A stretch of 63,856 bases of DNA, the filler included, from an uncultured Myxococcia bacterium (GTDB lineage: Bacteria > CAZTWC01): NCBI GenBank assembly GCA_964617105.1. It is 3 parts of 3 records of this genome, joined end to end, with 100 filler letters (N's around TTAATTAATTAA, not from the genome) between each part and the next. Parts side by side here need not be neighbours in the genome. Positions count along the whole stretch, not along the records: positions 24,324 to 48,036 come from CAZTWC010000023.1; 2 more parts are not named here. One strand, 5' to 3'. A program made the translations under genes and the position numbers. Shown here one piece after another: positions 14,848 to 48,136 of the stretch. Below the pieces are notes generated by a model. That model had not been told where the DNA came from. It searched no databases and saw only the letters and a program-made list of their open reading frames with translations. Position 1 is the stretch's first letter, and every line of letters begins with the position of its first letter.

Positions 14848-16370
14848 ATGAGGATTAACTCTTTTCAAATGAGCCGCACCCTCTTTAGATTGTTCTTCTT
14901 GAAACTATTTCGGCTCTTAAAACCTGGAGCCTTAACCTTTGTTTTAATTGCCGGCCTGCTTTTTGCAACTCATATCAATGCAGAGAATAAACAACCGCCA
15001 GAAAATCTGCTCAAAGAGCAAAAAACAGATGGAGAATTGTGGTCATTGGAAAAACTAATTAGCCTGGCTCAGGAAAACAACCAGGAGATAAAAGTGCAAA
15101 AGGCGGTTTTAAACACTGCCTGGCAAACCAGGCGGCGGGCTGAGTGGGCCCGGTATATTCCCCATCTGGAAATGCGTTCTATCAATGGGCTGGTGCCAGA
15201 AGCAAAAAATTGCCCCCTGGATGGTTCGGCCACAGCAAACAGCCAGTGCCGGCAGTCGCCAGCAGAACTTGGCTCCACTTTTGATAATCTGGGATTTTTT
15301 ACCCGTTGGGAGGTAGACCTGGTTCAACCCCTCTATACTTTTGGCAAACTTGAAGGGGCACTTAAAGCGGCACAAAGTAATATCAAAATCAGGCGCCAAC
15401 AGGTAAAGCAGAAAAAGCAAACTATCGCAATTAGAATATCCAAACTCTACTGGAGCATCCTTTTTGCCAGAGATTCTTTAGAAGTTATCAGCGAAGTGGA
15501 AGAGAAACTGGAGGAGGCAGAAGAGAAAGTAAAAGAGAAACTGGAGGAGGAAACCGGCGAGGTTACNNNNNNNNNNAGGCTGATCTATTTAAGGTTAAAG
15601 TATATAAAGGAGACGTGGCCGCTAAACGACTGGAGGCGGAAAAGGGAATGAAAACCGCCATCGAGGTAATTTTAAACACCGCGGGTCTGACCCAAGAGGA
15701 GCAATATAAAATATTTCTGGGTGACCTGGAGGAATTGGCCTTAGAGAGCAAACCCCTCTCTTTTTACCTGAAAAAAATGGTTACATCCCGGCCAGAATTG
15801 GAAATATTAAAACAGGGATTAAAGGCAAAACACGCCCAGGTGGCAGTGGTAAAAAGTGATTATTTTCCCCAAATCTTTATTGGCGGCATGTTACGCTTTG
15901 CTTACGCTCCTAACAGGGAGGAACCCAATAACGCCTATATTTCCGACTACTTCAACACCTTTTCTCTGGGAGCAGGGGTGGGTTTAAAACAAAAACTGGG
16001 TTTCCACACCACCTATGCAAAACTGGAAGAGAGCCGGGCTCAACTAATGGAATTACAACGACAAAACTCTCTGCTTAACCATGTTTTACCCCTGGAGGTG
16101 AAAAAAAACTACTATGCTCTACAGGAGACACAGCAACGGCTGGAAGCATCATATTCCAGTTACAAGGCGGGGAAAAGTTGGTTCAGGTCGGTGGGGATGA
16201 ATTATGGTGTGGGCATCTGCGATATCGATGAGATGCTGGAGGCCTACGGAGCATATATCAAAACCAAGACCATGTATTACAAGGCCATACTGGATTTTAA
16301 CCTGGCTGTGATTGAACTAAATGCGTCTGCCGGTATATTTGACTTTTCTCCGACTACAGTTGGGGATTGA
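14848..16370 (+). CDS. TolC-family outer-membrane channel (one gene split by a 10-N gap at 15567-15576)
   Basis: LEKLISLAQENN, QPLYTFGK, SRPEL, SDYFPQI, YYKAILDFNLAVIELNASAG. The two ORF-track pieces rejoin as EVT(Q)ADLFKVK across the gap. Confidence 0.85.
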
Positions 16371-24223: not shown

Positions 24224-24323
24224 NNNNNNNNNNNNNNNNNNNNNNNNNNNNNNNNNNNNNNNNNNNNTTAATTAATTAANNNNNNNNNNNNNNNNNNNNN
24301 NNNNNNNNNNNNNNNNNNNNNNN
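24224..24323. other. Artificial contig linker (N44-TTAATTAATTAA-N44)
   Basis: Exactly 100 bp with a six-frame stop spacer; identical copy at 48037-48136. Confidence 0.97.
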
Positions 24324-25211
24324 AAAACGGAAATGGTTCTTTTCCGCCCCTTCCAGGTTATATTGTCCCCGGTTTTTTTCCGCCCATACATATCCTCCCT
24401 CACCGTGCAGACCCACCTGCAAAATCTCTCCGCTGAAACTACCTCCAGCCAGATGCCAGCGGGTCTGTCCCAGGACATTTTCCGGCGCAATTTTATTGGC
24501 TAACACGCTCTGCAGATCTTGTCGTTGAATTGTGGCGGCCACATAGAGCAGAGAGATATCCCAAAGATCCTGGTGGGTTTTCAACCTCAACATCCAGTCT
24601 CCGTCTTCGACCCGCTGGAAATCACGGGATCGCTGATGGGAGGTGCCAAAAAAGTAGGTTATCTCCAACTCATTATCTTCCAGAAAGGTGAGGCTCCCCA
24701 TAATGGCATCAGTCCCCTCCACTTCATATCCGGGATTAAGGGGATCTTTACGGTTGATCAAATCGATAGGATTAAAGGCATACCCAGTGCCCAGGTAGAT
24801 TTTTTGGCGGCCGGCACAAAATTTTAATGGACCAGCAAAAAACATCCCAAAAGCCTCTTGCAGCCAAAGTTGGTTCTGCATGGTATGGATCAGGTATGGT
24901 TGTGCAAAGGCCGGTATAGTATTTCTTTCTCTTTGCGAAAGAAAATCGAAAAGCTCAAAGGTGGTGGCGCCGGTGTATAGATTGCCGATAATGGAAATTC
25001 CGACTTCCACCATTTCTCCCCCGCTAGCATTAAGATTCAAGCGGGTGCGAAAGTTTTGTAAAATGGGAAAAAGTTTTTTGTCTTTCCGGTAATCACCCAA
25101 GGTGGTGCTCTCAAAATAGCCGCCAGCCTGTATATTGTCCTGATCAAAGGCTAAGGCAGCACTATTAATAAGGAAATAATATAGAAACAACAGACAACTA
25201 ATCAATCGCAT
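24324..25211 (-). CDS. Outer-membrane protein of the type that accompanies LolA-like/MMPL pairs (3' end lost at the contig edge)
   Basis: Signal peptide; LQEAF..AGRQKIYLGTGYAFNPIDLIN..DP..EVEGTDA; starts 3 bp after the LolA-like gene. Confidence 0.7.
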
Positions 25212-25214
25212 TTT

Positions 25215-26108
25215 TTAATCCCTGATCTTCTTTCCCAGCCGTCTGGGGTTGAAAATATCTTTGGGCATCTTATGGTTGAATTTAACTTTTTTTAACACAT
25301 TCAGGGTCTGGCCACCATCTTCCAGGTTGGTCATGGTTATGCTCATCTGCACCAATTTTTTGCCGATTTTTTGAACATCTGCCAGAATCAAGCGCTTATG
25401 AGGTTTTTTTTCTCCGGAGTCGAAAAAATCAACTCTGCGGACCAGATAGTCATGTTTTCCTACCCACAGGAGAATTTTATCGTAAGTGGGGCCTTTGGGA
25501 GTGGGTTTTAATTGCAGCAGGTAACAATCTTTTCCCCCCTCTTTTTGTATCTGCAGAGTTTTACCCCGATATTTCTCGCGGTAATTGCCGCCAGCATTGT
25601 CTTCATAGGTAAAATCAGAGCCCATCACCCTCTTTTTACGGGCATGAGAGGCAATTTTTCGGGTGCGGCGGGTAGAAGGAGAATAGTACCAGATATCATC
25701 ACCGTGTTTTAGGATTAAGATTTTTACTCCCTTAATACGGGCAGGCGACAGGTAAACAGAAACCTGCTTTTCCCCATTGTTTATAGCCCACCCCTGGATC
25801 ACCATGGTTCGTTTTGAGCCGCCACTGGTGGTGATGGTTTGGGCCATCTCCATAAAAACAGTTATAAACCCTTCCGCCTTATCGATTTGCTCCAGAATTG
25901 ACTCAGCCGAGGGAAGTTTATTTTTCGTCTCCTGCCCAAAAGTATAGGGGCAAAAGTAGAAAAATGATAAGCAATAGATAACGCTAACCCAAATTGTTAG
26001 GTTCCATGTCAACCCGGCATTAAAATCCCGGGAATTCTTTTCATTTCTAAAAAGTTGCCAACCAGATATAAACTTTGCAGCAAAAATTCTGTCCATAATT
26101 ACATCCAT
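25215..26108 (-). CDS. LolA-like outer-membrane lipoprotein-sorting protein
   Basis: SPARIKGVKIL, IWYYSPSTRRTRKIAS, MGSDFTYED, CYLLQLKP, YDKILLWV. The true start may lie downstream of 26108. Confidence 0.88.
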   Translation of the reverse strand: MDVIMDRIFAAKFISGWQLFRNEKNSRDFNAGLTWNLTIWVSVIYCLSFFYFCPYTFGQETKNKLPSAESILEQIDKAEGFITVFMEMAQTITTSGGSKRTMVIQGWAINNGEKQVSVYLSPARIKGVKILILKHGDDIWYYSPSTRRTRKIASHARKKRVMGSDFTYEDNAGGNYREKYRGKTLQIQKEGGKDCYLLQLKPTPKGPTYDKILLWVGKHDYLVRRVDFFDSGEKKPHKRLILADVQKIGKKLVQMSITMTNLEDGGQTLNVLKKVKFNHKMPKDIFNPRRLGKKIRD

Positions 26109-26262: not shown

Positions 26263-27618
26263 ATGGAAAATTTATATCTAGCATTCAGCCGTGGTCTTTT
26301 TGACCAATGTATTAAATCTATTTTAGACTATCAGCGGAAAACCGGCCAGACCAATCCTGATCTGGACTATTTGCTGCTAATGAGTTATATCCGCGGCAAT
26401 TATACTGACAAAGCGGTTTACCATGCTATTGGCCTCTACCAGTTACTGTTCAGGTTTGAACCCGGCAGTGAGATTTTTCAAAGATATCTCAATTTGCTAA
26501 AAGGTACCAATATCCTGCAAACGGGTATACAGGTTATCAGGGAATTGAAAGAACTAAGCGAGATCGGTCCCGATTATTCAAGTATCTATCAAGATGTTTT
26601 ACAACAGGTAATTATTGATTTGTCCGACCAACAGCGGCAGTTAATCGTTTTCCCGATGATATGGCCAATTGCTTTTGGTGACTCTATTGTTCTGCACCAG
26701 TTTATCAAGCAGAAGAAAAAAGAGAATAGCCAGGCAGCCATTATGCTGATAATGCCGTTGAACAGGCCCGATCTTCAATACTTGGCCGAACTGAATAGTT
26801 CCATCGATTATCTTATTGATATTACCCTGCTGCCGGATCAAGAAAAGAACCGGCTTTCCACTTTGAACTTGAGCAACCAGCGATTTCTCAATGTAACTTT
26901 GCAGGAATGTATTATTCACAGTATATTGGATGAAATAAAAGCAAGTCATATTAACTTTCAGATTGAAAAAACCCGTTACCTGCCACTGCTTGACCGGTAT
27001 AAATATAACGCCGGCTGGCGGATATGGGAAAAACGGGCCGAATTATTTGTAAAATATGGTATTGAATTGCCCAAACTGTGCCTCCAGAAGGAGAAAAAGC
27101 AAAAGAAGATAACGGTTCATTTCAGGGAGGGTGATTATGGGGCTGAATCGAGAAATGTCAAGCCACAGCAGTCCCAGGAATTAATCGACTTACTAAAGAC
27201 TACTTATCCAACTCATGAAATTGTCCGCCTGGGCGATTGCTCTATGACGCCCATGAAAAATTGCCACGACCTTAGCCAGCAGAATTTATCTCTTCAAGCC
27301 CAAATTAAAGAGATCCAGGAGAGTGTTTTATATCTTGGCAGCCATTCCGGCCCTCAGCATTTAGCGATTGCCTGTAGTGATACCCCGGTGATCTGCACCC
27401 ATTATACAGTTGCTCCTGAATGTTTCAATTTTAATGACCAAATCAGCAAAATGTCTTTAGAACCGGTGGGGAAACAAGTTAAAGCGCTTTTATATAATAA
27501 AATGTATGATCAAAACAACAATTTGGTTTTGCCAAATTATGAACACAAAAATGTTCGTGTAGAGCAACCAGTCAATAGTGAAATTATCGAAAAAGTAAAA
27601 CAGGTTATCCAAGGTTAA
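26263..27618 (+). CDS. Putative GT-B glycosyltransferase (TIGR04372/GT9-like) with a helical N-terminal region
   Basis: AFGD, ITVHFREGDY..SRNV, IVRLGD, YLGSHSGPQHLA..TPVIC. Confidence 0.6.
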   Translation: MENLYLAFSRGLFDQCIKSILDYQRKTGQTNPDLDYLLLMSYIRGNYTDKAVYHAIGLYQLLFRFEPGSEIFQRYLNLLKGTNILQTGIQVIRELKELSEIGPDYSSIYQDVLQQVIIDLSDQQRQLIVFPMIWPIAFGDSIVLHQFIKQKKKENSQAAIMLIMPLNRPDLQYLAELNSSIDYLIDITLLPDQEKNRLSTLNLSNQRFLNVTLQECIIHSILDEIKASHINFQIEKTRYLPLLDRYKYNAGWRIWEKRAELFVKYGIELPKLCLQKEKKQKKITVHFREGDYGAESRNVKPQQSQELIDLLKTTYPTHEIVRLGDCSMTPMKNCHDLSQQNLSLQAQIKEIQESVLYLGSHSGPQHLAIACSDTPVICTHYTVAPECFNFNDQISKMSLEPVGKQVKALLYNKMYDQNNNLVLPNYEHKNVRVEQPVNSEIIEKVKQVIQG

Positions 27619-27636
27619 TAATTAAAGGAATGAAAT

Positions 27637-28899
27637 ATGGCTAAGTGCTACATTTTAGGCGCCGGTTTAACCGGACTCACTGCCGCCTATAAATTACAAG
27701 ATAAATTCTCTGAAGTGAAGGTCTTTGAACAAAAAAATTACCTGGGCGGAATTTGCCAGACTCATAAGATAGAGGGGATAAATTACGAATATGGTCCCCA
27801 TATCCTCTATACAACTACTGAAGAGCAAAAGAAGTTTTGGTTGTCACTGGTTGCCAACAACTTGTTTGACTATTATGTCCGCTGCAGCATCGATGGTAAA
27901 GTGGGCAAATATGAAGAACTCTATGATTTCCCCATCAGCAATAGAAATTTAACCCGTCTGGGAGTGTCATGTTCGCCCCAACCACCCGATTACAGCAATT
28001 TTGAAAACTATATGATCAGTCAAATCGGGCTGAAAGCGTACCAGACTTTTGTGAAAAACTACAACATTAAACAGTGGGGCATACCACCAAGCCAAATGTC
28101 CGCTGAATGGGCAAAAGGCAGACCGTTATCTCTTAAAGAAGATAACCCGAAGATGTTTGGCAATAAATGGGCTGGTCATCCAGGCTCATACCGACATTTT
28201 TTCGAAAAATTGAGTCATGGTTCCAGGCACTATTTAAACCTTAGGATAACTGGTGCTAAAATTGAAGATAATCTAATCAAAACCATTAATTGCCGTGAAT
28301 TGACTGAAGATAAACCAATGGTTGTTCAGGTGGCTCCTGATGATCTGGTGATCAATACTTTACCCATTGATCTCTTTTTTAAAGGAGAGTTGAGTTGGAG
28401 AGGGATCAGGAAAGTTTTTGTGGTCTTGGATAGGGAATCGTTAATGCCAACCTATAGCACAACTTTTCCCAATAATTATCCCTGGACCAGAATAATCGAA
28501 TACCCCAAACATTCTGGCCAAAAGGTAAAGGGCAAGTCGTTGATCTCTTTCGCCCTCCCCTATGGAGTGAAACAGCCGTTGAAGCCAGGATCTATGGAGG
28601 AAATTGATCAATTTATCGATAATGAAATTAAAGCGACAGAATTAAATCGCAGGATTGAACAGGAGGACAATATATATCCCATATCGAGTCATGAAAATTT
28701 GATCAATCTCGATAACATTCTGGCCGAAGCATCGAAGATCAATAATTTCATTACTATTGGACGCCTGGGTCTTTATGCCTATATTTCTATGAGTAGAGCC
28801 GTGGAGATGGTATTCCAACTCTCCCAGTCTATGGAAGATTTAAACAATTCTGCTGAACGTCTGGACTTTTATCAAAGCCTGAGGAAAGATTTGTGGTGA
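27637..28899 (+). CDS. FAD-dependent UDP-galactopyranose mutase (Glf)-like enzyme, divergent
   Basis: ILGAGLTG, EQKNYLGG, YGPHILYT, YNIKQWG, WTRIIEY, IGRLGLYAYISM. Confidence 0.75.
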   Translation: MAKCYILGAGLTGLTAAYKLQDKFSEVKVFEQKNYLGGICQTHKIEGINYEYGPHILYTTTEEQKKFWLSLVANNLFDYYVRCSIDGKVGKYEELYDFPISNRNLTRLGVSCSPQPPDYSNFENYMISQIGLKAYQTFVKNYNIKQWGIPPSQMSAEWAKGRPLSLKEDNPKMFGNKWAGHPGSYRHFFEKLSHGSRHYLNLRITGAKIEDNLIKTINCRELTEDKPMVVQVAPDDLVINTLPIDLFFKGELSWRGIRKVFVVLDRESLMPTYSTTFPNNYPWTRIIEYPKHSGQKVKGKSLISFALPYGVKQPLKPGSMEEIDQFIDNEIKATELNRRIEQEDNIYPISSHENLINLDNILAEASKINNFITIGRLGLYAYISMSRAVEMVFQLSQSMEDLNNSAERLDFYQSLRKDLW

Positions 28900-28904
28900 A
28901 AGAG

Positions 28905-29705
28905 ATGAAGTTGAGTTTTGCCGTCTCTATATCAGAAACCAGGTTTGAGGCAATTGCCAGTGGGAATTGGCAGAAAAATATCAAATTGATGGCAGACCTT
29001 AAATTTGATGGGGTGGAGTTGAGTGTTCGTTCGCCAAAAACTGTTGATCTCAAAAAATTGCTGTCTGATTTGGATAAAACCGGGCTGGAAGTTTCCGCTA
29101 TCGGCACCGGGCAGGCCCTGGTTGACGATTCCCTCTCCCTGACTGATGATGACCAGGAAATTCGTTTTCGGACGATATCAAGGATTAAGCAGCATGTAGA
29201 TTTGGCTTGCCATCTAAAGACCAGGGTAATTATAGGCCTTATTCGCGGCCGGATGGGTCTGGAGCCAAACCGGCGGGCTCAAAAGATCGCCTATTTTAAA
29301 GAGGGTCTCAAACTGTTAGCAGATTACTCTTTGCCCAAAGGGATAACCTTATTGATTGAGCCATTGAACCGGTATGAAGGTGATTATTTAAGTTCTGCCG
29401 AGGAAACTATCGATTTTATAGAGGAGATTGGTTGTTCAAACCTGGCTTTGCTTTTAGATACCTTTCATATGAATATTGAAGAGGCTGATATCCTGGAGAG
29501 TTTCCGAAGATCAAAGAACTATTTACAGCATGTTCATATTGCCGACAGCAATAGAAGATCACCGGGAGAAGGCCACCTTGATATTAGAGGTATTGTCGAG
29601 GTGCTAAAAGAGATCGACTATGACGGTTATTTATCTGGAGAAATTTTAAAGCATATTTTGATAATCTCCCAATTCTCGCGACCAGGTGAATTTCCGGACG
29701 GGTAG
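28905..29705 (+). CDS. iolO: IolO/TM0416-like 5-keto-gluconate epimerase (sugar epimerase TIM barrel); last helix replaced by repeat-derived sequence
   Basis: MKLSF, GTGQA..DSLSL, VIIGLIRG, IEPLNRYE, DTFHMNIEE, HIADSNR..PG.GH, SGE. Confidence 0.75.
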   Translation: MKLSFAVSISETRFEAIASGNWQKNIKLMADLKFDGVELSVRSPKTVDLKKLLSDLDKTGLEVSAIGTGQALVDDSLSLTDDDQEIRFRTISRIKQHVDLACHLKTRVIIGLIRGRMGLEPNRRAQKIAYFKEGLKLLADYSLPKGITLLIEPLNRYEGDYLSSAEETIDFIEEIGCSNLALLLDTFHMNIEEADILESFRRSKNYLQHVHIADSNRRSPGEGHLDIRGIVEVLKEIDYDGYLSGEILKHILIISQFSRPGEFPDG

Positions 29706-29708
29706 TAA
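29670..29708. repeat. MITE-like terminus overlapping the iolO-like 3' end
   Basis: Near-identical to 5022-5060; supplies the TAG stop of the gene. Confidence 0.6.
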
Positions 29709-29711
29709 TCT

Positions 29712-29763
29712 CGTCATTCTTGCAAAATGTGTCTACGATTCCTATTGGGGAGCGGGAATCCAG
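29712..29763. repeat. GTCATTC...GCGGGAATCCAG-type REP-like palindrome with inner hairpin
   Basis: CGTCATTCTTGC...(hairpin)...GCGGGAATCCAG, a degenerate form of the widespread GTCATTCCCGCG..GCGGGAATCCA repeat. Confidence 0.55.
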
Positions 29764-29780
29764 AAAGTTTGAGGCGATAA

Positions 29781-30566
29781 ATGGAAACAAAATTTAGTGA
29801 TAAAGCAGTAGATCAAGTTGGTAGTAATGAGGTTGAATTGTGCAGTGAATTCAACTATATCAAGGGATTTATTTTGGCCAATATTAACCGGTCAACCCCT
29901 TATGAAGATTATAGCCAAGAGAGTGAAACTGCCCTGATTATTCTCCAGGGGGTCTGCGATATAACCATCAATGAGAATCAATATAAAGATATTGGCGAGC
30001 GGAAAAATGTGTTTGACGGGCTACCTTTTGGCGCCTATATACCGGTTGATACCCATTATTCAATTCAAAGTGAACAGGCATTGGTTGCTGTTTGCAAATG
30101 CAAATGTGAAAAAAAAACCAGGGAGCAGATTATTTCTCCAAAGCAGATAAAAGTAATGGAGGTGGGAAAAGATAATTGGACCCGAGAGGTGAGGATCATT
30201 TTAGGTCCTGATTCTCCGGCAGTCAATCTGATCCTGGGAGAGACCATCAATCCGCCGGGGAATTGGTCGGGGATACCACCGGCAAAACATGAGCAGGTTA
30301 ATTTGCCCTATGAGTCGCTTCACGAGGAGTTATACTATTTTAAAACCGATAAACCTCAGGGGTGGGGGGTTGAGAGGATCTATTCCCCGGAGCGGAAGTG
30401 CAATCAATTGGTTCATTTGGAGGATGGGACGGTTACCTTTATGCCCTGGGGATACCACCAGGTGGTAGCCGCTCCAGGATATACTCTCTATTATCTGTTT
30501 TTTCTGGGTGGAGAGGGTAATAATCTGGCTCAATTTGAAGACCCTGAACACAATTGGATAAAATAG
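29781..30566 (+). CDS. IolB/KduI-family cupin isomerase (5-deoxy-glucuronate isomerase-like), divergent
   Basis: RKNVFDG.P, GETINPPGNWSGIPPAKHE, HEELYYF, GYHQVVAAPGYTLYYL, DPEHNWI. Confidence 0.85.
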   Translation: METKFSDKAVDQVGSNEVELCSEFNYIKGFILANINRSTPYEDYSQESETALIILQGVCDITINENQYKDIGERKNVFDGLPFGAYIPVDTHYSIQSEQALVAVCKCKCEKKTREQIISPKQIKVMEVGKDNWTREVRIILGPDSPAVNLILGETINPPGNWSGIPPAKHEQVNLPYESLHEELYYFKTDKPQGWGVERIYSPERKCNQLVHLEDGTVTFMPWGYHQVVAAPGYTLYYLFFLGGEGNNLAQFEDPEHNWIK

Positions 30567-30666
30567 TTCTCTGCAGGCTTTTGATGAATTGTACAAATGC
30601 CACTGATTGTAATTAAGCGGGACTTTGGTAAGGATTTGTTAACATCTTTAAAGGGGAAAAATAGTT

Positions 30667-31596
30667 ATGAAAGATATCTCGGCCGATGATATTGCTAAAA
30701 ATATACCTTTGATCACCAGGAAAGATTTTGCCAGGCAGGTTGAGGCCGGTCAGGTAAAGATTGGTGGCAAAAAACTCACCATCATGGCTGGCCCATGCAC
30801 TGTGGAGAGTAAAAGCCAAATATTTCAAATCGCCAAAGCGGTTAAAGAGTCGGGCGCCGCCATGTTAAGGGGCGGTGTTTTTAAACCGCTCACTTTTCCT
30901 TATGGGGACCCGATTGGCCAACCTGATGCAGATTCTTCTGAACCACCGGCTTTTGACCGGATGCAGGTTCTCTCCAAACCAGAGTTGTTCAAAATGGCGG
31001 AGAAAAGATTTGCCTATTTTAAAGAGGCAGGTGTCAAATATGGCTTGCCGATTATCTCGGAAGTACTCTATGCCGATTCGGTGGAGATGCTCAGCCAATA
31101 TGTCGATGTGTTCCAGATTGGGTACCGTCACATGTTCAATATGGACCTTATCGAAGCGCTGGCTCATACCGACAAGCCGGTTATGATAAAACGTCATTAC
31201 GGGGAGAGTATCCGTTCACTTCTGGGGGTGGGAGAGCATTTTGATGCCAGGGGAAAAGAGAACATTCTCTTTTGTGAGCGCGGTGTTTGCTCTCCCCACA
31301 CTCATAACGTTGAATCCCGGGCCATTATCGATATTCAGGCCATCCCGGCTCTAAAGGAATATTGCCCTTCAGTGCCGGTTATTATCGATCCCAGCCACTC
31401 CACCTTTAAAAGAGACTACGTGTCTGCCATTTCCAGGGCTGCCATAGCCGCAGGGGCGGATGGTCTTCTAATTGAGGTTCATCCAGATCCGGAGAAAGCC
31501 TGGGTCGATCCATTGCAGGCCCTGGGCTTTAAGGCTTTTGACAAATTAATGCGGGAGATAGAAGGGATCGGTAGGGTTATTGGCAGAGAATTGTAA
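30667..31596 (+). CDS. DAHP-synthase type I-beta / KDO8PS-family PEP aldolase-like synthase, atypical
   Basis: MAGPCTVES, LRGGVFKPLT, QIGYRHM, KRH, CERG, DPSHS, EVHPDPEKAWVD; no regulatory domain. Confidence 0.88.
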   Translation: MKDISADDIAKNIPLITRKDFARQVEAGQVKIGGKKLTIMAGPCTVESKSQIFQIAKAVKESGAAMLRGGVFKPLTFPYGDPIGQPDADSSEPPAFDRMQVLSKPELFKMAEKRFAYFKEAGVKYGLPIISEVLYADSVEMLSQYVDVFQIGYRHMFNMDLIEALAHTDKPVMIKRHYGESIRSLLGVGEHFDARGKENILFCERGVCSPHTHNVESRAIIDIQAIPALKEYCPSVPVIIDPSHSTFKRDYVSAISRAAIAAGADGLLIEVHPDPEKAWVDPLQALGFKAFDKLMREIEGIGRVIGREL

Positions 31597-31606
31597 AACG
31601 GTCTGC

Positions 31607-33709
31607 CTACTCGAGCCATTTATTGCCGTCAGTGCAGGCTTTGATAACCGCTTGATACAATCTATGGTTGGCGCAGAAACGTTCTTCTGGAATGGTGGTC
31701 TCGTGTGCCCATTTGATGGTATCGATAACTCGGTTTTCACTGTGCATATAGATAAAGGTGAGAGCCGGTTTTAGTGCGCGCAGCAACTTGTCCTCAAAGG
31801 ATAACAGCCGCTTTATTTTATCTGAAGGCAGGGAAGATGACTGGTTGAGCCGGGCGCATTGTCGGGCCAAATATAGGCACTTTTTAAAACTCAATTTTAA
31901 ATTACCCTTCTCTTTTTTCAGGTATTTTCTTTTCTTTTCTTTGTCGGAGACCATAAGAAGATTGGTGGAAAAGGGTTCCCAATTTTGAATGTGGTTAAAA
32001 TCGAACTGTTCCACCACGGTTTTCAAGGGGATATGCTCCATGTTGTCAATATAGGCCCCGCCCTCTGTACTATTGATTATTCGAACCTGTTCTTTAATCT
32101 CCAGGGCCGAATCTTCAAGAAATTCGCGAGTGATGCTCCAATTTTTAAAAGTCAGCACTTTTTTGTCAAAATATCCCCGGGTTTCCTCCATCTCTTCCTG
32201 GCCGGTCAGATTAATGTGGCTGTGTTGGTTATCCATTTTATTGGCTTTTTGGCTCCAGCCTTTAATCGTAAAAGTTTTATTGTCATCTGACAGGTTGACT
32301 CTGGTGTGTTTGTCGTGAACAGTATGGTCGTAAATCCGCCCATCTTGAAAAGCCAAATCATGTCCAACCAGAATTATCGGGTCACAGCCTAAAAGTTTAG
32401 CTAATGAAAAAGCAGCGGTTGCCACCGTGACACTAGAGTGTAAATAGGTTTCCTTGTCAAACAGGTAGTCGAGCCATTGAGCGATGTTGGTTTCACTGTT
32501 GTATAAAAAAACCTGTTTAAAGTTGAGTTCTAATACCTTTGGATTAACTTGACCGGATAGAATTACCGCCTTTAGTTGTTCAACTGGATAGTCGTCAAAA
32601 TGGTAGCAGATATCAGAAGGAGCCACTACCTGGACAATGTCGGGGATGATATCCTTTTTTTTGAGGGGCGCCAATGCTTTGCTATAGGCCAGTAAAAGGG
32701 CTTTGCCCTTTAGGCTTTGGATGAGATCGATGTTTTTTGCCAAAGAGGGGCCAGGGGCAATCAAGACAATTGGTTTTTTCTGCCATCTATTTTTTAGGGT
32801 CGAGACCAGGGGCCAGCGGGTAAATTGATTCAGGTTGCTAAGGGTTTGGGGAATAGATATTTTAGCAAAATGTTTTTGCCGAAAATTTAATATCATTTTA
32901 TTACGGAAAAAGTTCTCCAGGATACTGGTAAGATACTCAAGTTTTGGGCGGGAAAGAGCCATTTTTAAGAGAGATTTCCCAATGATAGTTTCCGGCAAAG
33001 GAGAGGAAAGATTGTCCATGGCATTTAGCAATTCAGGTTCGTTTCTGACCACCGTTATCAGGGACGGCAGGTTTTCAATGGTTTTTTGATCTTCAAGAAA
33101 AAGGACAATTCGAGTCTGTCCGCGCCGGGCTAACTCTCTAGCCACATCAGCCAAGTCAGAACCAAATAGGATGGAGATATTAAGGTTAAAATTCCAGGCC
33201 AGAGGCAGCATCCGGTCTACAAAACCGGAGATATTTTCGGCCAGGCCCATGTTTCGCCTGCCAACCAGGGCGCCAGTAGGAAACCAGTTGGCCAGCAATT
33301 GCTGTTGGGTAAGAGGCCCGGATTGATTCAGCCAGGCTAAGATAACTTCATTCGCCTGACGGCAGGAGGAGGTTAACTCTTTCATCTGTTCAACCAGGCC
33401 GGACCACTTTGAAAAGTCATCGATATTGATCTCTTCTAGGGCCTGGTGAACCCGGTTGAAATTGGCTCTGGCAACCCGGCTGCGGTCAATTAGTTTTCGG
33501 ATCTCTTTATTATTGCCAGCCTGGCTGGCCACGCTTTTTTTTATTTTTTTTCCCAAACTGTCCAAATCTTTTAGATTAGTCAGCATAAATTTTATCTTGT
33601 CCGAATCCGGCCACTGGGGATCCCAGAGGATCTCTTCAGCCGGCAAATTGATGGTGGTATCTGGTCTGGGGTCAATTTGAGATTGTTGTTTTTGGGGTGA
33701 CTTAGGCAT
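31607..33709 (-). CDS. Maf (motility-associated factor)/DUF115 MptE-like glycosyltransferase
   Basis: IAPGPSLAKNID, IIPDI, SVTVATAAFSLA..LGCDPIILVGHDLAF, INSTEGGAYI. ATG at 33709 after AGGAGA. Confidence 0.85.
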   Translation of the reverse strand: MPKSPQKQQSQIDPRPDTTINLPAEEILWDPQWPDSDKIKFMLTNLKDLDSLGKKIKKSVASQAGNNKEIRKLIDRSRVARANFNRVHQALEEINIDDFSKWSGLVEQMKELTSSCRQANEVILAWLNQSGPLTQQQLLANWFPTGALVGRRNMGLAENISGFVDRMLPLAWNFNLNISILFGSDLADVARELARRGQTRIVLFLEDQKTIENLPSLITVVRNEPELLNAMDNLSSPLPETIIGKSLLKMALSRPKLEYLTSILENFFRNKMILNFRQKHFAKISIPQTLSNLNQFTRWPLVSTLKNRWQKKPIVLIAPGPSLAKNIDLIQSLKGKALLLAYSKALAPLKKKDIIPDIVQVVAPSDICYHFDDYPVEQLKAVILSGQVNPKVLELNFKQVFLYNSETNIAQWLDYLFDKETYLHSSVTVATAAFSLAKLLGCDPIILVGHDLAFQDGRIYDHTVHDKHTRVNLSDDNKTFTIKGWSQKANKMDNQHSHINLTGQEEMEETRGYFDKKVLTFKNWSITREFLEDSALEIKEQVRIINSTEGGAYIDNMEHIPLKTVVEQFDFNHIQNWEPFSTNLLMVSDKEKKRKYLKKEKGNLKLSFKKCLYLARQCARLNQSSSLPSDKIKRLLSFEDKLLRALKPALTFIYMHSENRVIDTIKWAHETTIPEERFCANHRLYQAVIKACTDGNKWLE

Positions 33710-33743
33710 ATAGTTCTCCTGAACAGGCGTGGGCAATCAACTG

Positions 33744-36515
33744 TTAGCAGTGCCCAGGCCGATCCCCTTGTCTTTCGGTTAAAAACCTGCTGGCCACGTG
33801 CATTAAGGGGGGCATTACCAAAATGGTTGAGCACAGGCAGGCTCCCACCCCGATCAGTAGCACTACCCCCAGGCTGGCCATGCCGGGATGGGCGTAAAAG
33901 GCGATATTGCCAAAACCGATCATAGTGGTGAAACTGGTCATCATCACTGCCCGGCCTACGCTGGTAAATATGATTGATAAAGATTTGCTCCTGTCTTCCA
34001 AATATCGGTGCAGCACATGTACTCCATCATCCACGCCAATGCCAATCATAATCGGTACCGCTATCAGGTTGACCATGTTGTATTTGACCCCTAATGCCCA
34101 GGCAGCCAGCAGCATCCAGGTCACTCCCACTCCCAGGGGAACCACTGCCAGCAAGGCTGGTAAAATACGCCTGAAATCCAATAATAGCAGTAAAAAAATA
34201 GCCGCGGCTGTGGCCAGGATAGTCAGGTTACCATCACTGATAAGTTGAGTGTTCATCTCCAGCATCAAAGCGGGAATACCGGTAATCTGGGGCGCTATTT
34301 TAGACACCGTAGCAGTAAATCTCTCCAATGGCTCTTTGTCATAAATAAAATAGCGAGGATACAACTGAACCAGGTATCCACCTTTGCTGCTTTTATAGCG
34401 GTTTAAGATCTCCGGAGGCAGCATATCTTCAGTAACCGGACCCCGGTTGGCGCTCATCTCTTTAAGCCTGGCGGCCAGTAATTTTTGAAAGCGCTCAAAG
34501 AATTTCTGTAAATGTTCTTTATCCACTCTCTGGCCGATTTTAAACTGTTCAACCAATTTTGCCAGAGGGCCTCCTCCTTTTTCTCCACCGGTGAGGCGCT
34601 CCAATTTGGCAACCACCCTATCCTGCCCGCCGATATAGGACAACTCTTCCATCTCCAGAATATTTTGATATAGCCTTTCCAACTGAGCAGTTAAAGATTC
34701 AAGATTGATTTGAGCGGCCAGACTATTCTCTTTGGGTTTCTGGTTGCCGGTCCGAATATTTTTCGATGCTATTGATGAATGATTTTTTTCAGAATCCATT
34801 AAGAACTGGTGTAATTTTTCCACCAACCGGTCATTTTTCTCTTGCCATTTTGGGTCGGGGATCAAAAATGAGATACTGTCGATATCGCCTACCAGCCGTT
34901 TCTTTTTAAACGCCCTGGTCAGTTTACGGGCCTGGCCGATGTTATCTGCCACTACACTGCTCATCTCCGGGCTCATTTTATAGCGGTCAATAATCTCTTT
35001 TTGCAAAAAAACCGAGTCCACTTGCGGCTCCATTTCCAGAAAATTGTATTCATAGGGAATTTGGTCTTTTATCCAAAAGCCCAGAGCCAGGGAGATAATA
35101 GTGAAAGATAAAATCAGCCAGCGCCATTTTACAAAACTCTGGGTAAAGCGTCCCAGGGGAGCGAAATTCGGACTTTTTATCTTTTTGTGCCGGGATATGT
35201 TTCGTTGTTCATGCCATACCAACAAAGAGGGGAGAATTAGCAGGATGGCTCCCAGGGTAAAGAGGATGCCGAAACCAGCGCAGAAACCGAATTCATAGGT
35301 GCCTTTGGATTCAGAAATCATGGTGGCGAAAAAAGCAGCAGCCGTGGTAATCGCCCCCATCATCACTCCCCGGCCGGTTCCCACTACAGCCAAGGTAAGA
35401 GCTTGCTCAAGGGTGCCGCCTTTGAGCCTTTCTTCCCGGAACCGATTTAAGATATGGATGGAAAAATCGATGCCAATACCTATTAAAACCAGCATAATCA
35501 TGGCGGTAATCAGGTTCAGGGTCTTGATAGTTACAGCGTAAAAACCCATGGACCAACTTATGCCTATCAGGAGTGGTAGAATTCCCCATAGAGGTGTCAG
35601 CCAGTCTCCAAAGTTCCAGCGTAGCATAATCAGCACCAACAACAAGGCCAAAATAGTCAGTATCATGGTTTGAGGACCAAGAGTCCTCATCTCGTCAGCA
35701 CCAATGGGGACCATGCCGGTGCGCCTGATTTTTATACCGGGATATTTCTTTTCTATGTTTTTGAGTAAGACCTGAAGATCTTCATCCATTGGTAAATACT
35801 GGTCAAAATCATCAATACTAAAAGTGGAGGCTAAAAGCACCATGGTCATTTGGCGATCTGGAGAGAAATAATAGGGATTGCCAGTGGTTAAATCTCTGAT
35901 TACCCGTTTTACATCAGTCTTGGAATTGCTGTCGGCGGCACTGGAGATGGCCAGCACCAGTTTTTCTATGGAATCCATCCGGTTAACCACGTCTCGTTGG
36001 TTATTGCGGATATTTTCTTCATCACCAACGTATTCTTTTTCTAAATCATTATTGAGATGAGTAAGAAAAGGGAGTAGCCGGGGATCGGAAAAAAGATTAA
36101 CCGTTCGCTTCAGATCCTTAATTTCCATAGTTCGCAAGCCGTGTTTCAGGACAAATTGTTCAGGCATTTTGCCAACTACCAATTTAACCCATTTAGTCTC
36201 CTTCTTAAGGCTTTCGATAACCTCTTCAGTGACCTGTTCCAGTAATATTTCGTTGTCTTCCTCATTGTTTCCTTCAATGTCTCTTTCAATAACCACCAGA
36301 TAGTTGCCGGGATTGGAAAAATCTTTATCAATCCGTTTATACTCCTGCACTACCGGCATGGTTTCCGGCAAAAGGTGAGTCCATTGGTAACTCATTTTAA
36401 TTTGGCTGGCCAATACCAGAGAGATTAAGGTGCTGACCAGAGAAAAGATAAGAACAGTCCGCCGTTTTTCCAGAGCCAGGTAAACCAGCAGTTTAAGGAA
36501 TTTTTTTTTATACAT
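33744..36515 (-). CDS. MMPL/RND-family lipid exporter
   Basis: Two repeats with IGIGIDFSIH and IGIGVDDGVHVLHRY; TTAAAF / TTMIGFG; large periplasmic loops. Confidence 0.92.
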   Translation of the reverse strand: MYKKKFLKLLVYLALEKRRTVLIFSLVSTLISLVLASQIKMSYQWTHLLPETMPVVQEYKRIDKDFSNPGNYLVVIERDIEGNNEEDNEILLEQVTEEVIESLKKETKWVKLVVGKMPEQFVLKHGLRTMEIKDLKRTVNLFSDPRLLPFLTHLNNDLEKEYVGDEENIRNNQRDVVNRMDSIEKLVLAISSAADSNSKTDVKRVIRDLTTGNPYYFSPDRQMTMVLLASTFSIDDFDQYLPMDEDLQVLLKNIEKKYPGIKIRRTGMVPIGADEMRTLGPQTMILTILALLLVLIMLRWNFGDWLTPLWGILPLLIGISWSMGFYAVTIKTLNLITAMIMLVLIGIGIDFSIHILNRFREERLKGGTLEQALTLAVVGTGRGVMMGAITTAAAFFATMISESKGTYEFGFCAGFGILFTLGAILLILPSLLVWHEQRNISRHKKIKSPNFAPLGRFTQSFVKWRWLILSFTIISLALGFWIKDQIPYEYNFLEMEPQVDSVFLQKEIIDRYKMSPEMSSVVADNIGQARKLTRAFKKKRLVGDIDSISFLIPDPKWQEKNDRLVEKLHQFLMDSEKNHSSIASKNIRTGNQKPKENSLAAQINLESLTAQLERLYQNILEMEELSYIGGQDRVVAKLERLTGGEKGGGPLAKLVEQFKIGQRVDKEHLQKFFERFQKLLAARLKEMSANRGPVTEDMLPPEILNRYKSSKGGYLVQLYPRYFIYDKEPLERFTATVSKIAPQITGIPALMLEMNTQLISDGNLTILATAAAIFLLLLLDFRRILPALLAVVPLGVGVTWMLLAAWALGVKYNMVNLIAVPIMIGIGVDDGVHVLHRYLEDRSKSLSIIFTSVGRAVMMTSFTTMIGFGNIAFYAHPGMASLGVVLLIGVGACLCSTILVMPPLMHVASRFLTERQGDRPGHC

Positions 36516-45278: not shown

Positions 45279-46945
45279 ATGAAAAAAATAATTTTATTAT
45301 TGGGAGCAGTAGTTTTAATGCTCCTCTATCTATATTGGCCCGAAAGTAGCCACCTTGAGTTTCAATCCTGGGATATAGATGTTCAACCTGAATCAGAGGG
45401 CAATGTACAATTTACTGCCTGGCAAGTTCCTGAAAATTTGATAAAGGTGAGTTTGTGGAAAGATGGCGAGAATTTTGCTGAAAATAGCCAGAACCAGGGG
45501 GAACAAGATACTAAAGTCGGCCAGAATGAAAGCGGGACAATTTCTCCGCCAAAGACTCAGGGAAAAAAGAAACGCCAAAGAGGCAAAGGTAAATTGCCTA
45601 AGGTCGCTCCCTCTTTAAGCAAGGGAATTCACCTGTTGGTCAAATTACTCAATCAGAGATTGGAACATATTAGCAAAATGGCGCCCGTGTTGCTAACTCA
45701 GGGAAAAATGAACAAAGAGGTGTTGAAATTATTTCAAAATGGAAATTATCTGAAGGCCATGGAAAAAATGGATTTGCTGGCCTCCAAATATGCTAATGAT
45801 CAGGAGGTGGTTTTTGCTTTTCAAACAGCCTGCTACTTGACCGTATTGAAATCTATAGAGAAGGGACATGATTTGCAGGGTTTGAAATGGCTGGAAAAGA
45901 GCATTACTTATCGATACCGGGATTATAATTTTTGGCTGTTTGAGGCAATTATATTTTATCGAATGAGGCTTTACCAGGGAGCGGCTCTATCGTTTTCTAA
46001 TATGATAAATCTAACTCTGCCTATGGATGTCCTCAATGTTGCCGAATTTTACCTGGCCAGGATCAATCACGGATTAGGCAGATCTGAGCGTGGGTTGGAA
46101 TATATCGAGAAATTTCTGCAGAGAAATCGAAATGACCGCCAGGCGGAAAAATTGAAAGAAGAGATCATTAAGGAGATAAAAAGAGATCAAAACCTGATTC
46201 TTCAACAAAACTCGGTGGTTTCAATTAAATACCCGGCTGATTTGGCCAAAAAAGATTGGACAATAGCCTGTATCCAGGAAGGATTAACCAAAGGAAGCAG
46301 TTATCTATTCAGCACTTTTGGACTACAGGTTGAACAATCTCCCCTGGTGGTGATTTACCAGAATAAAAAATATTTTCATAGCGCCACCGGAGCGCCCACC
46401 TGGAGTTCAGCCTTTTTTGACCGCAAGATAAGATTGCCGGTGGACAGCAAACATTTGGGCAAAAATTCCTATTGCCGTTATTTGCAAAAAATGGTGAGCC
46501 ATGAATATGTGCATTACCTGTTATTTATGGTGGCAGGTGGTAATTTGCCTATCTGGTTTCACGAGGGTTTGGCTCAACTAGTGAGTGGCGAATCGGATCA
46601 GTCCCGGTTGAAAACCTATAAAATGTTTGCCAAATCGGGCTCGTTTATCCCTTTTACATCCCTGGAAGGNNNNNNNNNNCTTCCTCAATAGAAACTGTTG
46701 GATGCCAACCAAGTTCATTTTTGATTTTTGAAAAGGAAGATGCCAAAATAGCCTATCACCAAAGCCTCTCTATATTGGAGTATATCAGGGACAGGTACGG
46801 AGCGGCTTATATCAAAGAGATTATCCAGGCCTATATTCAAAAGAGAACGTTGGAAAAAGTGGTTCAAAAGGTTTTTAATATCGATTTAACTACCTGGCAG
46901 AAAGAATGGCTGTTTTATCTACAGAAAACTTATGGCGGTAAATAA
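45279..46945 (+). CDS. TPR + peptidase MA-family zinc metalloprotease (split by a 10-N gap at 46670-46679)
   Basis: N-terminal anchor, TPR helices, HEYVH...WFHEGLAQ; the downstream piece AKIAYHQSLSILEYIRDRYG..W..YL is the expected C-terminus. Confidence 0.8.
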
Positions 46946-48036: not shown

Positions 48037-48136
48037 NNNNNNNNNNNNNNNNNNNNNNNNNNNNNNNNNNNNNNNNNNNNTTAATTAATTAANNNNNNNN
48101 NNNNNNNNNNNNNNNNNNNNNNNNNNNNNNNNNNNN
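48037..48136. other. Artificial contig linker (N44-TTAATTAATTAA-N44)
   Basis: Same 100-bp structure as 24224-24323. Confidence 0.97.

Follow-up and report, generated by a model that had tools for sequence, protein, structure and literature searches.

The window analysed here, a stretch of 63,856 nucleotides (filler included) from assembly GCA_964617105.1 of an uncultured Myxococcia bacterium, carries an open reading frame (ORF) for a 309-amino-acid protein, referred to below as the synthase (Table 1). This protein represents a new subfamily nested within type I-beta 3-deoxy-7-phosphoheptulonate synthases (DAH7PS). Our analysis suggests, with a probability of about 0.7, that it is a phosphoenolpyruvate (PEP)-dependent ulosonic-acid synthase of a cytidine monophosphate (CMP)-sugar cassette and that it uses an unphosphorylated sugar aldehyde. 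The subfamily itself is directly observed, and convergent, indirect lines of evidence point to a PEP-dependent synthase acting on a non-phosphorylated aldehyde. The protein would be a metal-dependent, PEP-utilising aldol-type synthase descended from type I-beta DAH7PS. In this proposal the PEP and metal half has been kept and the aldose half rebuilt: both arginines that change along with the loss of the KPRT motif are gone, some fifteen residues of catalytic-face loops have been exchanged, and about 29 residues have been added to the beta2-alpha2 lid.

Sequence, fold and phylogeny of the synthase subfamily

HMMER alignment of the synthase with the DAH7PS of P. furiosus and T. maritima revealed two aligned blocks, residues 24-80 and 111-302. 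The PF00793 (DAHP_synth_1) match (1.9e-46) is the only Pfam domain above threshold, and the AlphaFold2 (AF2) model is a single (beta/alpha)8 barrel (predicted local distance difference test score, pLDDT, 93.5). These results agree with the preliminary description of this ORF, which had reported no ACT or chorismate-mutase regulatory domain. PMC6362186 gives Cys, His, Glu and Asp as the metal ligands of a type I-beta DAH7PS; the RGG Arg, KP Lys, GxR Arg, KR Lys and ERG Arg as its PEP ligands; and the Arg and Thr of KPRT, together with the final Asp, as its ligands for erythrose 4-phosphate (E4P). The metal ligands (C44, H244, E270 and D281) and the PEP residues (R68, K73, R154, K175 and R205) are all kept in the synthase and are invariant or nearly so in the 120 family members described below and in the canonical enzymes. 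At the E4P positions leucine (L75) is found in place of arginine, and T76 and D281 are retained.

Each motif listed in the preliminary description was found where it had been placed, both by translation of the sub-ranges and in the HMMER alignment. The reported insertion was found as well, but it is somewhat longer than the roughly 25 amino acids given before: the alignment is broken between residues 80 and 111, and in MAFFT 31-32 residues of the synthase stand where canonical enzymes have 3, an excess of about 29 amino acids. The insertion is mostly coil (AF2 pLDDT 83-92), with conserved residues D/E81, P82, D87, D89, D97, R98, K104 and E106. R98 occurs in 116 of 120 members, and K104 in 96 with arginine instead in 13 more.

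A search of 5.8 billion proteins revealed more than 120 clusters of relatives (about 305-312 amino acids, 67-78% identity), and all member counts given in this study refer to the best 120 clusters at 90% identity. KPLTFPY was found in 119 of these 120 clusters. Hence KPLT is not a singleton substitution absent from close homologues, the outcome named beforehand as speaking against a subfamily. Further residues of the family are F77 (120), Y153 (119), H155 (118), H177 (120), H211 (119), H213 (120), F247 (120) and W279 (120). In the canonical comparison set (144 representatives of at least 240 amino acids), arginine occupies position 75 in 129 and serine position 77 in 126. Family-invariant changes beyond those already described are R211H, F213H, G247F, G177H, M178Y, A180E, E183R, E184S and G282P; R183 is thus a gain specific to the family. 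The canonical ERGIRTF reads ERGV..PHTH in the family, with three residues inserted before H211. Counting against 138 canonical rows identified 33 family-specific positions (at least 95% in the family, below 10% in the canonical rows). Seventeen of the 33 lie in catalytic-face beta-to-alpha loops, as assigned from the secondary structure of the AF2 model, and these loops make up 76 of the 273 aligned positions (hypergeometric P about 0.002, for positions that are not independent); seven more lie in helix alpha5. The sequence features of the synthase far exceed chance.

At 50% identity the whole family falls into a single cluster; the nearest full-length sequences outside it show 44-50% identity. 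Identity between loci ranges from 57 to 80%, and the family is spread over at least ten phyla, including bacteria of the Candidate Phyla Radiation (CPR). A tree built by a quick method, with ten KDO8PS sequences as its root, shows the family as a single clade (Shimodaira-Hasegawa-like approximate likelihood ratio test, SH-aLRT, 100) nested in type I-beta DAH7PS. Its sister group in the same tree (support 96) comprises five sequences (P0123, P0127, P0128, P0132 and P0155) of about 283-300 amino acids, which have KP(L/C/A)TF and the H211/H213 pair and lack the insertion. One of them, P0155, has asparagine where the metal-binding cysteine stands. Among longer proteins, the only fused forms were canonical DAH7PS fusions of at most 44% identity, and among 60 genomes of the same domain only, no relative of the synthase above 43% identity was found.

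None of the NCBIfam models for DAH7PS or KDO8PS reaches its cut-off on the synthase, though all of them match. The best is PRK08673 (269.2 bits against a cut-off of 335), and TIGR01361 (238.6 against 267.75), PRK12595 (203.9 against 279) and the KDO8PS model TIGR01362 (99 against 314) are likewise below. The suggestion of a possible new subfamily in the preliminary description is borne out by the single 50% cluster, these sub-cut-off scores, the clade with SH-aLRT of 100 and the glycan gene neighbourhood presented in the next section. Public annotation of the relatives is '3-deoxy-7-phosphoheptulonate synthase'. Full-text searching, whose coverage excludes subscription-only papers, returned no paper on the subfamily or on bacterial ulosaric acids, and the terms 'nonulosaric' and 'octulosaric' did not occur in the full texts searched. 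New CMP-ulosonic acids are reported in the SugarBase preprint, the accessible part of which does not mention DAHP-synthase-like genes.

PEP-dependent alpha-carboxyketose synthases have three known jobs, the synthesis of 3-deoxy-7-phosphoheptulonate (DAH7P), of 3-deoxy-D-manno-octulosonate (Kdo) 8-phosphate (KDO8P) and of sialic-acid-like sugars. The synthase family falls within this group of enzymes. The best Foldseek matches are the DAH7PS of A. pernix, P. furiosus and T. maritima (template modelling score 0.78-0.80 by query length and 0.7-0.9 by target), with KDO8PS second. The unregulated type I-beta enzymes (P. furiosus 1ZCO, A. pernix 1VS1 and the T. maritima core 1RZM/3PG8) resemble the synthase in fold (Foldseek E 1e-28 to 1e-29, 32-38% identity) and share its Cys-His-Glu-Asp metal site and its set of PEP-binding arginines and lysines. 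The synthase differs from them in the arginine-to-leucine change, S77F, R211H, F213H, G247F, L279W, the insertion and a glycan rather than a shikimate context. Thus it has the fold and the metal and PEP residues of type I-beta DAH7PS, but neither the KPRT/S motif nor the curated model scores. KDO8PS (KdsA) belongs to the same superfamily and has the same reaction type, and Kdo is likewise CMP-activated and moved to glycans; Kdo-transferase-like and KdsB-related genes occur in the family clusters. However, the synthase is only about 21-23% identical to KDO8PS (E 1e-16), has neither KANRS nor QIPAFLxRQTD, and is not accompanied by KdsC or KdsD among annotated neighbours.

NeuB, PseI and LegI are PEP-dependent and take an unphosphorylated aldose from dedicated upstream enzymes; a CMP-transferase and, for flagellin, Maf follow. 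By analogy, the synthase works most plausibly like these enzymes, although it is of a different family: the NeuB domain PF03102 scores 21.2 bits against a gathering score of 22.1, over 68 residues only, and no SAF domain is present. The enzymes that would feed it are also of sugar-acid isomerase, epimerase and dehydrogenase types and not aminosugar enzymes. BagF/FevY and other pathway-dedicated I-beta paralogues are likewise extra paralogues recruited to a specialised pathway. BagF/FevY-type enzymes still make DAH7P from E4P, whereas the synthase (180.6 bits against a cut-off of 700) has lost the phosphate ligand and stands in a glycan context.

Gene neighbourhood and two alternative feeder modules

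Analysis of gene neighbourhoods covered 19 loci from species genomes (L001-L019) and 30 from metagenomes (L033-L062). A CTP_transf_3 cytidylyltransferase or a fusion of GT2 and cytidylyltransferase occurs in 35 of the 41 loci whose flank is 3 kb or longer; in each of the other six the sequence stops within 1.6 kb downstream of the synthase. A putative CMP-ulosonic-acid cassette, consisting of the synthase, CTP_transf_3 and glycan-assembly genes, is found in 35 of 41 loci. PseF is the best match of the cassette cytidylyltransferase and KdsB the next, both below cut-off. Recurrent genes in the clusters are flippases, Wzy, Wzz, O-methyl, acetyl and carbamoyl transferases and B12-radical-SAM enzymes. 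Acid-sugar enzymes also recur, namely uridine diphosphate (UDP)-glucose dehydrogenase, an enolase-superfamily dehydratase and a DHDPS/KdgD-like protein. Kdo-transferase-like GT30 genes were found in four loci (L007 and L049-L051) and polysialyltransferase-like genes in L005, L006 and L053. A NeuB system stands beside the cassette in L002, L035, L037, L043 and L049, as a complete NeuB module in some loci. HAD phosphatase domains occur in only three loci, the near-identical L010 and L047 and L043, in which the NeuB module's cytidylyltransferase carries it as a fusion; the clusters thus have a CMP-transferase and almost never a phosphatase. Genes for dehydroquinate synthase, dehydroquinate dehydratase, KdsC and KdsD were all missing from the annotated neighbours of the loci.

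In the window, the genes directly upstream of the synthase encode an IolO/TM0416-like epimerase and an IolB/KduI-family isomerase, and a Maf/MptE-like gene is convergent with it (Table 1). The epimerase scores 293.9 bits on NF041099 (5-keto-L-gluconate epimerase, cut-off 300) and 126 on the psicose epimerase model; its best match in the PDB is T. maritima TM0416 (4.6e-51), with other ketose epimerases at 1e-25 (for IolO function see PMC12632266). The isomerase passes the TIGR04378 model for 5-deoxy-glucuronate isomerase (214.6 bits against 205). The Maf-like gene matches FlagModPseD at 1.1e-23, with 83.7 bits against a cut-off of 670.

Two alternative sets of genes occupy the position upstream of the synthase. 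Of 37 loci with at least 1.8 kb of upstream sequence, 21 are of type A, with an IolB-like gene directly upstream as in the window, 15 are of type B, with a GFO/IDH/MocA oxidoreductase and a shikimate-dehydrogenase (SDH)-like gene, and one is of neither type. In eight of the nine type-A loci among the species genomes the IolB-like gene is immediately preceded by the IolO-like gene, and in the ninth (L015) the two are about 9 kb apart; in L014 another gene stands between the IolB-like gene and the synthase. For three type-A metagenome loci (L041, L042 and L053), the gene that precedes the IolB-like one was left unassigned when genes were labelled by likeness. The two pairs are non-homologous, occupy the same slot and almost never occur there together in the 49 loci. 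The synthases themselves do not differ by type: median identity is 70.8% for A-A, 71.1% for B-B and 69.2% for A-B comparisons, and no alignment column separates the types. The maximum-likelihood tree has three changes of context label, and 0 of 200 bootstrap trees manage with one. Moreover, L004 (type A) matches L037/L038 (type B) in its set of downstream genes. It looks as if either feeder module can take the place of the other.

The simplest function that the modules could share is net epimerisation of a sugar or sugar-acid aldose two carbons from the aldehyde. Module A would convert the aldose to a ketose, epimerise it at carbon 3 and convert the ketose back to an aldose, and module B would reach the same net epimerisation by oxidation and re-reduction. 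IolB/IolO-type enzymes need an alpha-hydroxy-carbonyl, which is absent in a 3-deoxy-2-ulosonic acid, and module A therefore acts most plausibly before the synthase. The SDH-like proteins keep the Lys/Asp dyad plus Ser, Tyr and Gln, the last three of which we take to be the substrate-carboxylate binders of E. coli AroE. Judged from sequence, this residue set would fit a carboxylate-bearing six-membered ring, either a 3-keto-uronate or equally the ulosonic acid itself (an oxa-analogue of quinate). PMC12053666 describes an oxidoreductase pair that epimerises pseudaminic acid after its synthesis. With this precedent the type-B pair could act after the synthase, and the order of steps in type B may be either way. 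The SDH-like proteins of the proteobacterial type (L001, L002, L009, L012, L016, L018 and L019; for example L002:4205-5242) carry an insertion of about 40 amino acids in the C-terminal half, and the CPR versions (about 297 amino acids) are without it.

Comparison within the source genome revealed that the canonical enzymes of the superfamily are present elsewhere: an I-alpha DAH7PS on contig C6 (KPRS), two I-beta DAH7PS on C128 and C119 (KPRTSPY, with ERGIRTF or ERGIKTF) and a KDO8PS on C265 (KANRS, QIPAFLCRQ). Three CPR genomes (G061-G063, 0.6-0.8 Mb) have PF00793 matches solely at the loci retrieved with the family protein, whereas two larger carrier genomes have further PF00793 genes besides the family member. 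Chorismate synthase was found in 0 of the 3 CPR genomes and in 2 of 2 larger carriers. The family protein is most probably not the cell's DAH7PS or KDO8PS. The orthologue of the cassette cytidylyltransferase was found in the source genome on a 2.8-kb contig (C402), beside a methyltransferase, and is 63% identical to that of L017. The source genome further encodes at least six flagellins (C1, C10 and C56), as well as two NeuB proteins whose genes lie on the short contigs C451 and C392.

Proposed function and alternative explanations

The pathway that we infer has four steps. Upstream enzymes would make an unphosphorylated sugar aldehyde; in this organism the IolO-like epimerase would invert the carbon beside the keto group of a keto-sugar acid and the IolB-like isomerase would turn the ketose end into an aldehyde. 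The synthase would join this aldehyde to PEP to form a 3-deoxy-2-ulosonic acid. A PseF/KdsB-type cytidylyltransferase, here that on C402, would produce the CMP-sugar, and transferases would move the sugar onto glycans. The convergent Maf-like gene, together with the flagellin genes, makes flagellin the likely target in this organism. Those relatives of the feeder enzymes that have been characterised use keto- or uronic sugar acids carrying no phosphate. The preliminary description had suggested a PEP-dependent synthase for a non-phosphorylated or bulkier aldehyde. The non-phosphorylated part fits the retained core, the loss of the arginine that crystallography assigns to E4P binding, the feeder enzymes and the scarcity of phosphatases and is probably correct. 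The bulkier part is not specifically supported, since most replacements are from small to large residues (S to F, G to F, A to Y, L to W) and a filled, smaller pocket is equally possible.

A more specific and tentative proposal is that the substrate is a uronate-type (carboxylate-bearing) aldose and the product a dicarboxylic 'ulosaric' acid. Its widest form is doubtful: the product would belong to an undescribed class of sugar, a CMP-3-deoxy-2-ulosaric acid made from PEP and a uronate-type aldehyde, supplied by either feeder module through the same net epimerisation and carrying a carboxylate in place of the phosphate of E4P. Ten or more phyla, with genome-reduced CPR bacteria among them, would use this sugar on their surface glycans, and the marine bacterium studied here would use it on its flagellin. 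If the proposed function is correct, the family is a fourth functional type beside DAH7PS, KDO8PS and NeuB, conserved and widely transferred, and shows how the phosphate-binding subsite can be rewritten while PEP chemistry stays. It would further mean that many uncultured bacteria, CPR bacteria with very few biosynthetic genes among them, carry a so far undescribed acidic sugar on their surfaces and probably on their flagella, and that the widespread mis-annotation as 3-deoxy-7-phosphoheptulonate synthase can be corrected. The interchangeable feeder modules would be a clean natural example of non-homologous replacement in a sugar pathway.

Several observations weigh against the proposal or parts of it. 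The substrate is deduced, for every family member, from sequence and context. Thr76, also an E4P ligand, is kept in 120 of 120 members, and with the conserved R98 and K104 and the gained R183 a phosphate or other anion could still bind anew. Near-duplicate loci (L005/L006, L010/L047 and L003/L040) mean that locus counts overstate independent observations. Well-supported branches by themselves force no more than one A/B switch, and action of the type-B pair after the synthase could weaken the idea that both modules feed one common substrate. No cytidylyltransferase is present on the synthase's own contig, and the tie to C402 is by orthology only. The evidence for flagellin as target is solely the adjacent Maf-like gene, whose PseD score falls far short of its cut-off. 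No completeness is given for the CPR genomes, and hence the failure to find chorismate synthase in them is no proof of its absence.

The same chemistry and glycan role would also be compatible with a neutral unphosphorylated aldose as the aldehyde: arabinose, mannose, or an allo or altro hexose reached by 3-epimerase and isomerase. The product would then be a sugar already known or close to a known one, for instance Kdo or an isomer of 3-deoxy-D-glycero-D-galacto-nonulosonic acid (Kdn), formed by a phosphate-free route. This version is nested in the general proposal and competes only with the uronate substrate. TM0416-type enzymes and the PDB neighbours of the epimerase are neutral-sugar ketose 3-epimerases (tagatose, psicose, ribulose), and many of the replacements in the synthase are aromatic (F77, Y153, F157, F247 and W279), as is typical of CH-pi stacking on sugars; the GT30 genes in four loci point in the same direction. 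We nevertheless regard a neutral aldose as unlikely, since the epimerase scores far higher on the 5-keto-L-gluconate model than on the psicose model, and the isomerase passes the cut-off for 5-deoxy-glucuronate isomerase. Characterised IolB and KduI act on uronates. The AroE carboxylate-binding residues are kept in the SDH-like partner, and the recurrence of UDP-glucose dehydrogenase, the enolase-superfamily dehydratase and the DHDPS/KdgD-like protein in the clusters likewise argues for an acid sugar.

A phosphorylated substrate is improbable. Under this explanation the synthase would be a specialised DAH7P, KDO8P or other sugar-phosphate synthase with a rebuilt phosphate site, feeding a shikimate-like or Kdo-like branch, as the public annotation, the DAH7PS fold with its metal ligands and PEP site, the retained T76, the conserved R98, K104 and R183 and the SDH-like neighbour in 15 of 37 loci might suggest. 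Yet Arg75 and Arg211 are both lost in 119 of 120 members, every curated DAH7PS and KDO8PS model is below cut-off, and the four shikimate and Kdo enzymes named above were not found among the annotated neighbours. HAD phosphatase domains are confined to three loci, one of them with a NeuB module; the source genome is already supplied with DAH7PS (three genes) and KDO8PS (one gene), and the family occurs in CPR carriers in which chorismate synthase was not found. Highly improbable, in our view, is that the trio of epimerase, isomerase and synthase is catabolic or serves salvage, for example in a variant of inositol or uronate degradation, and lies beside glycan genes by coincidence. Homologues of IolO and IolB are indeed known from inositol, L-glucose and uronate catabolism, but this superfamily's PEP-dependent synthases work biosynthetically, and many phyla have the trio, or the dehydrogenase alternative to it, in operons that also encode cytidylyltransferases, glycosyltransferases and flippases. 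Neither a kinase nor an aldolase is present to complete a catabolic route, and no gene was recognised as a transporter for sugar uptake. Seven of the 19 loci from species genomes have ABC genes; these encode fusions of ABC_tran and ABC_membrane, which are of the exporter type.

Features of the window and further observations

The window consists of three contigs (C22, C23 and a third) of a 489-contig genome, and the synthase is on C23 (24324-48036). Because the contigs are joined by N spacers (24224-24323 and 48037-48136), neighbourhood arguments are valid only inside 24324-48036; N runs also occur at 15567-15576 and 46670-46679. The ORF at 24276-25211 on the minus strand extends into an N spacer. 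The features relevant to the synthase are listed in Table 1.

Table 1. Genes around the synthase and motifs within it; nucleotide positions count along the window and residues along the synthase.
Feature	Nucleotides	Strand	Residues	Remarks
451-aa protein	26263..27618	+		No Pfam/NCBIfam family; possibly GT-B glycosyltransferase (language-model lead only); orthologue in L043 cluster
GLF-like flavoprotein	27637..28899	+		UDP-galactopyranose-mutase-like, far below cut-off; orthologue in L043 cluster
IolO/TM0416-like ketose(-uronate) 3-epimerase	28893..29705	+		5-keto-L-gluconate 4-epimerase-like; xylose-isomerase-like TIM barrel; NF041099, PDB match
IolB/KduI-family cupin isomerase	29781..30566	+		Directly upstream of synthase; Pfam KduI 2e-63; TIGR04378
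DAH7PS-I-beta-derived synthase	30667..31596	+	1-309	ATG start; Pfam DAHP_synth_1; stop codon inside coordinates
GPC			42-44	Metal-ligand motif with C44
RGG			68-70	Holds PEP residue R68
KPLTFPY	30883..30903	+	73-79	KPRTSPY in canonical enzymes; Arg to Leu, Ser to Phe
Family-specific insertion	30907..30996	+	81-110	Beta2-alpha2 loop; HMMER, MAFFT, AF2
QIGYRHMFN	31114..31140	+	150-158	Canonical QIGARNSQN; R154 kept; A153Y, N155H, Q157F
KRH			175-177	Canonical KRG; K175 kept
ERG			204-206	PEP residue R205 kept
PHTH	31294..31305	+	210-213	Beta6-alpha6 loop; second Arg of ERGIRTF to His, Phe to His, 3 residues added
DPSHSTFKR	31387..31413	+	241-249	Metal-binding His244 kept; G247F invariant
EVH			270-272	Metal ligand E270
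AWVD	31498..31509	+	278-281	Canonical ALSD; metal/aldose-binding Asp281 kept; L279W, S280V
Maf/MptE-like (PseD-like) protein	31607..33736	-		Putative flagellin ulosonic-acid transferase, convergent with synthase; Pfam MptE-like 4.1e-32

An AAAGGGG stretch lies upstream of the synthase ORF. The N-terminal segment of the synthase ahead of the barrel (residues 1-23, 30667-30735) has the pattern MKDIS..D..NN.PL.TR....R, whose residues mostly occur in 117-120 of 120 members across phyla. Such cross-phylum conservation is unusual and may reflect a function, such as capping the barrel, forming an interface or binding a partner. The 7.5-kb cassette (26263-33736) is flanked by a LolA-like gene (25215-26108) and an MMPL/RND-type transporter gene (33744-36515), both on the minus strand, and may be an insertion of glycan genes into a transporter/LolA-like operon; its G+C content is not distinctive. 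Comparison with a protein atlas gave glycosyltransferase-like leads only for the 451-aa protein and for a type-B neighbour of about 400 amino acids.

Locus L043 has the cassette, a cytidylyltransferase and orthologues of the window's 451-aa protein, GLF-like protein and Maf protein, the last of which flanks the cassette in L043. The region L043:2722-17309 has two Maf paralogues, one by the module of NeuB and the cytidylyltransferase-HAD fusion and the other by the DAH7PS-like cassette. This pairing suggests two distinct ulosonic acids with separate transferases. In eight loci (L002:7682-10027, L004, L009, L012, L015, L037, L038 and L046) the GT2-cytidylyltransferase fusion (about 450 amino acids) is followed by a DHDPS/NanA-like gene, and in L009 and L012 an enolase-superfamily sugar-acid dehydratase stands two genes past the latter. 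These genes may belong to the synthesis of another keto-acid sugar or to a branch that tailors the same sugar. In the CPR loci L013:3348-5138, L048:31-1776 and L010:6306-8070, a UDP-glucose-dehydrogenase-like protein without the C-terminal UDP-binding domain is fused to, or directly before, an SDR epimerase/dehydratase immediately upstream of the cassette. NCBIfam matches of the SDR epimerases/dehydratases near the cassette are heterogeneous and below cut-off, and they do not indicate a nucleotide sugar feeding the pathway, if any. A canonical KPRTSPY relative included for contrast only (L021) adjoins prephenate-dehydrogenase-like and EPSP-synthase-like ORFs, named by reading the translations, with no family search run.

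Near-identical DNA was found in marine and seawater metagenomes from two studies, and no RNA run was among the sequencing runs listed with it. Four of the flagellin genes form a tandem array at C1:13827-17908, made up of two near-identical pairs that score equally, and further copies are on C10 and C56.

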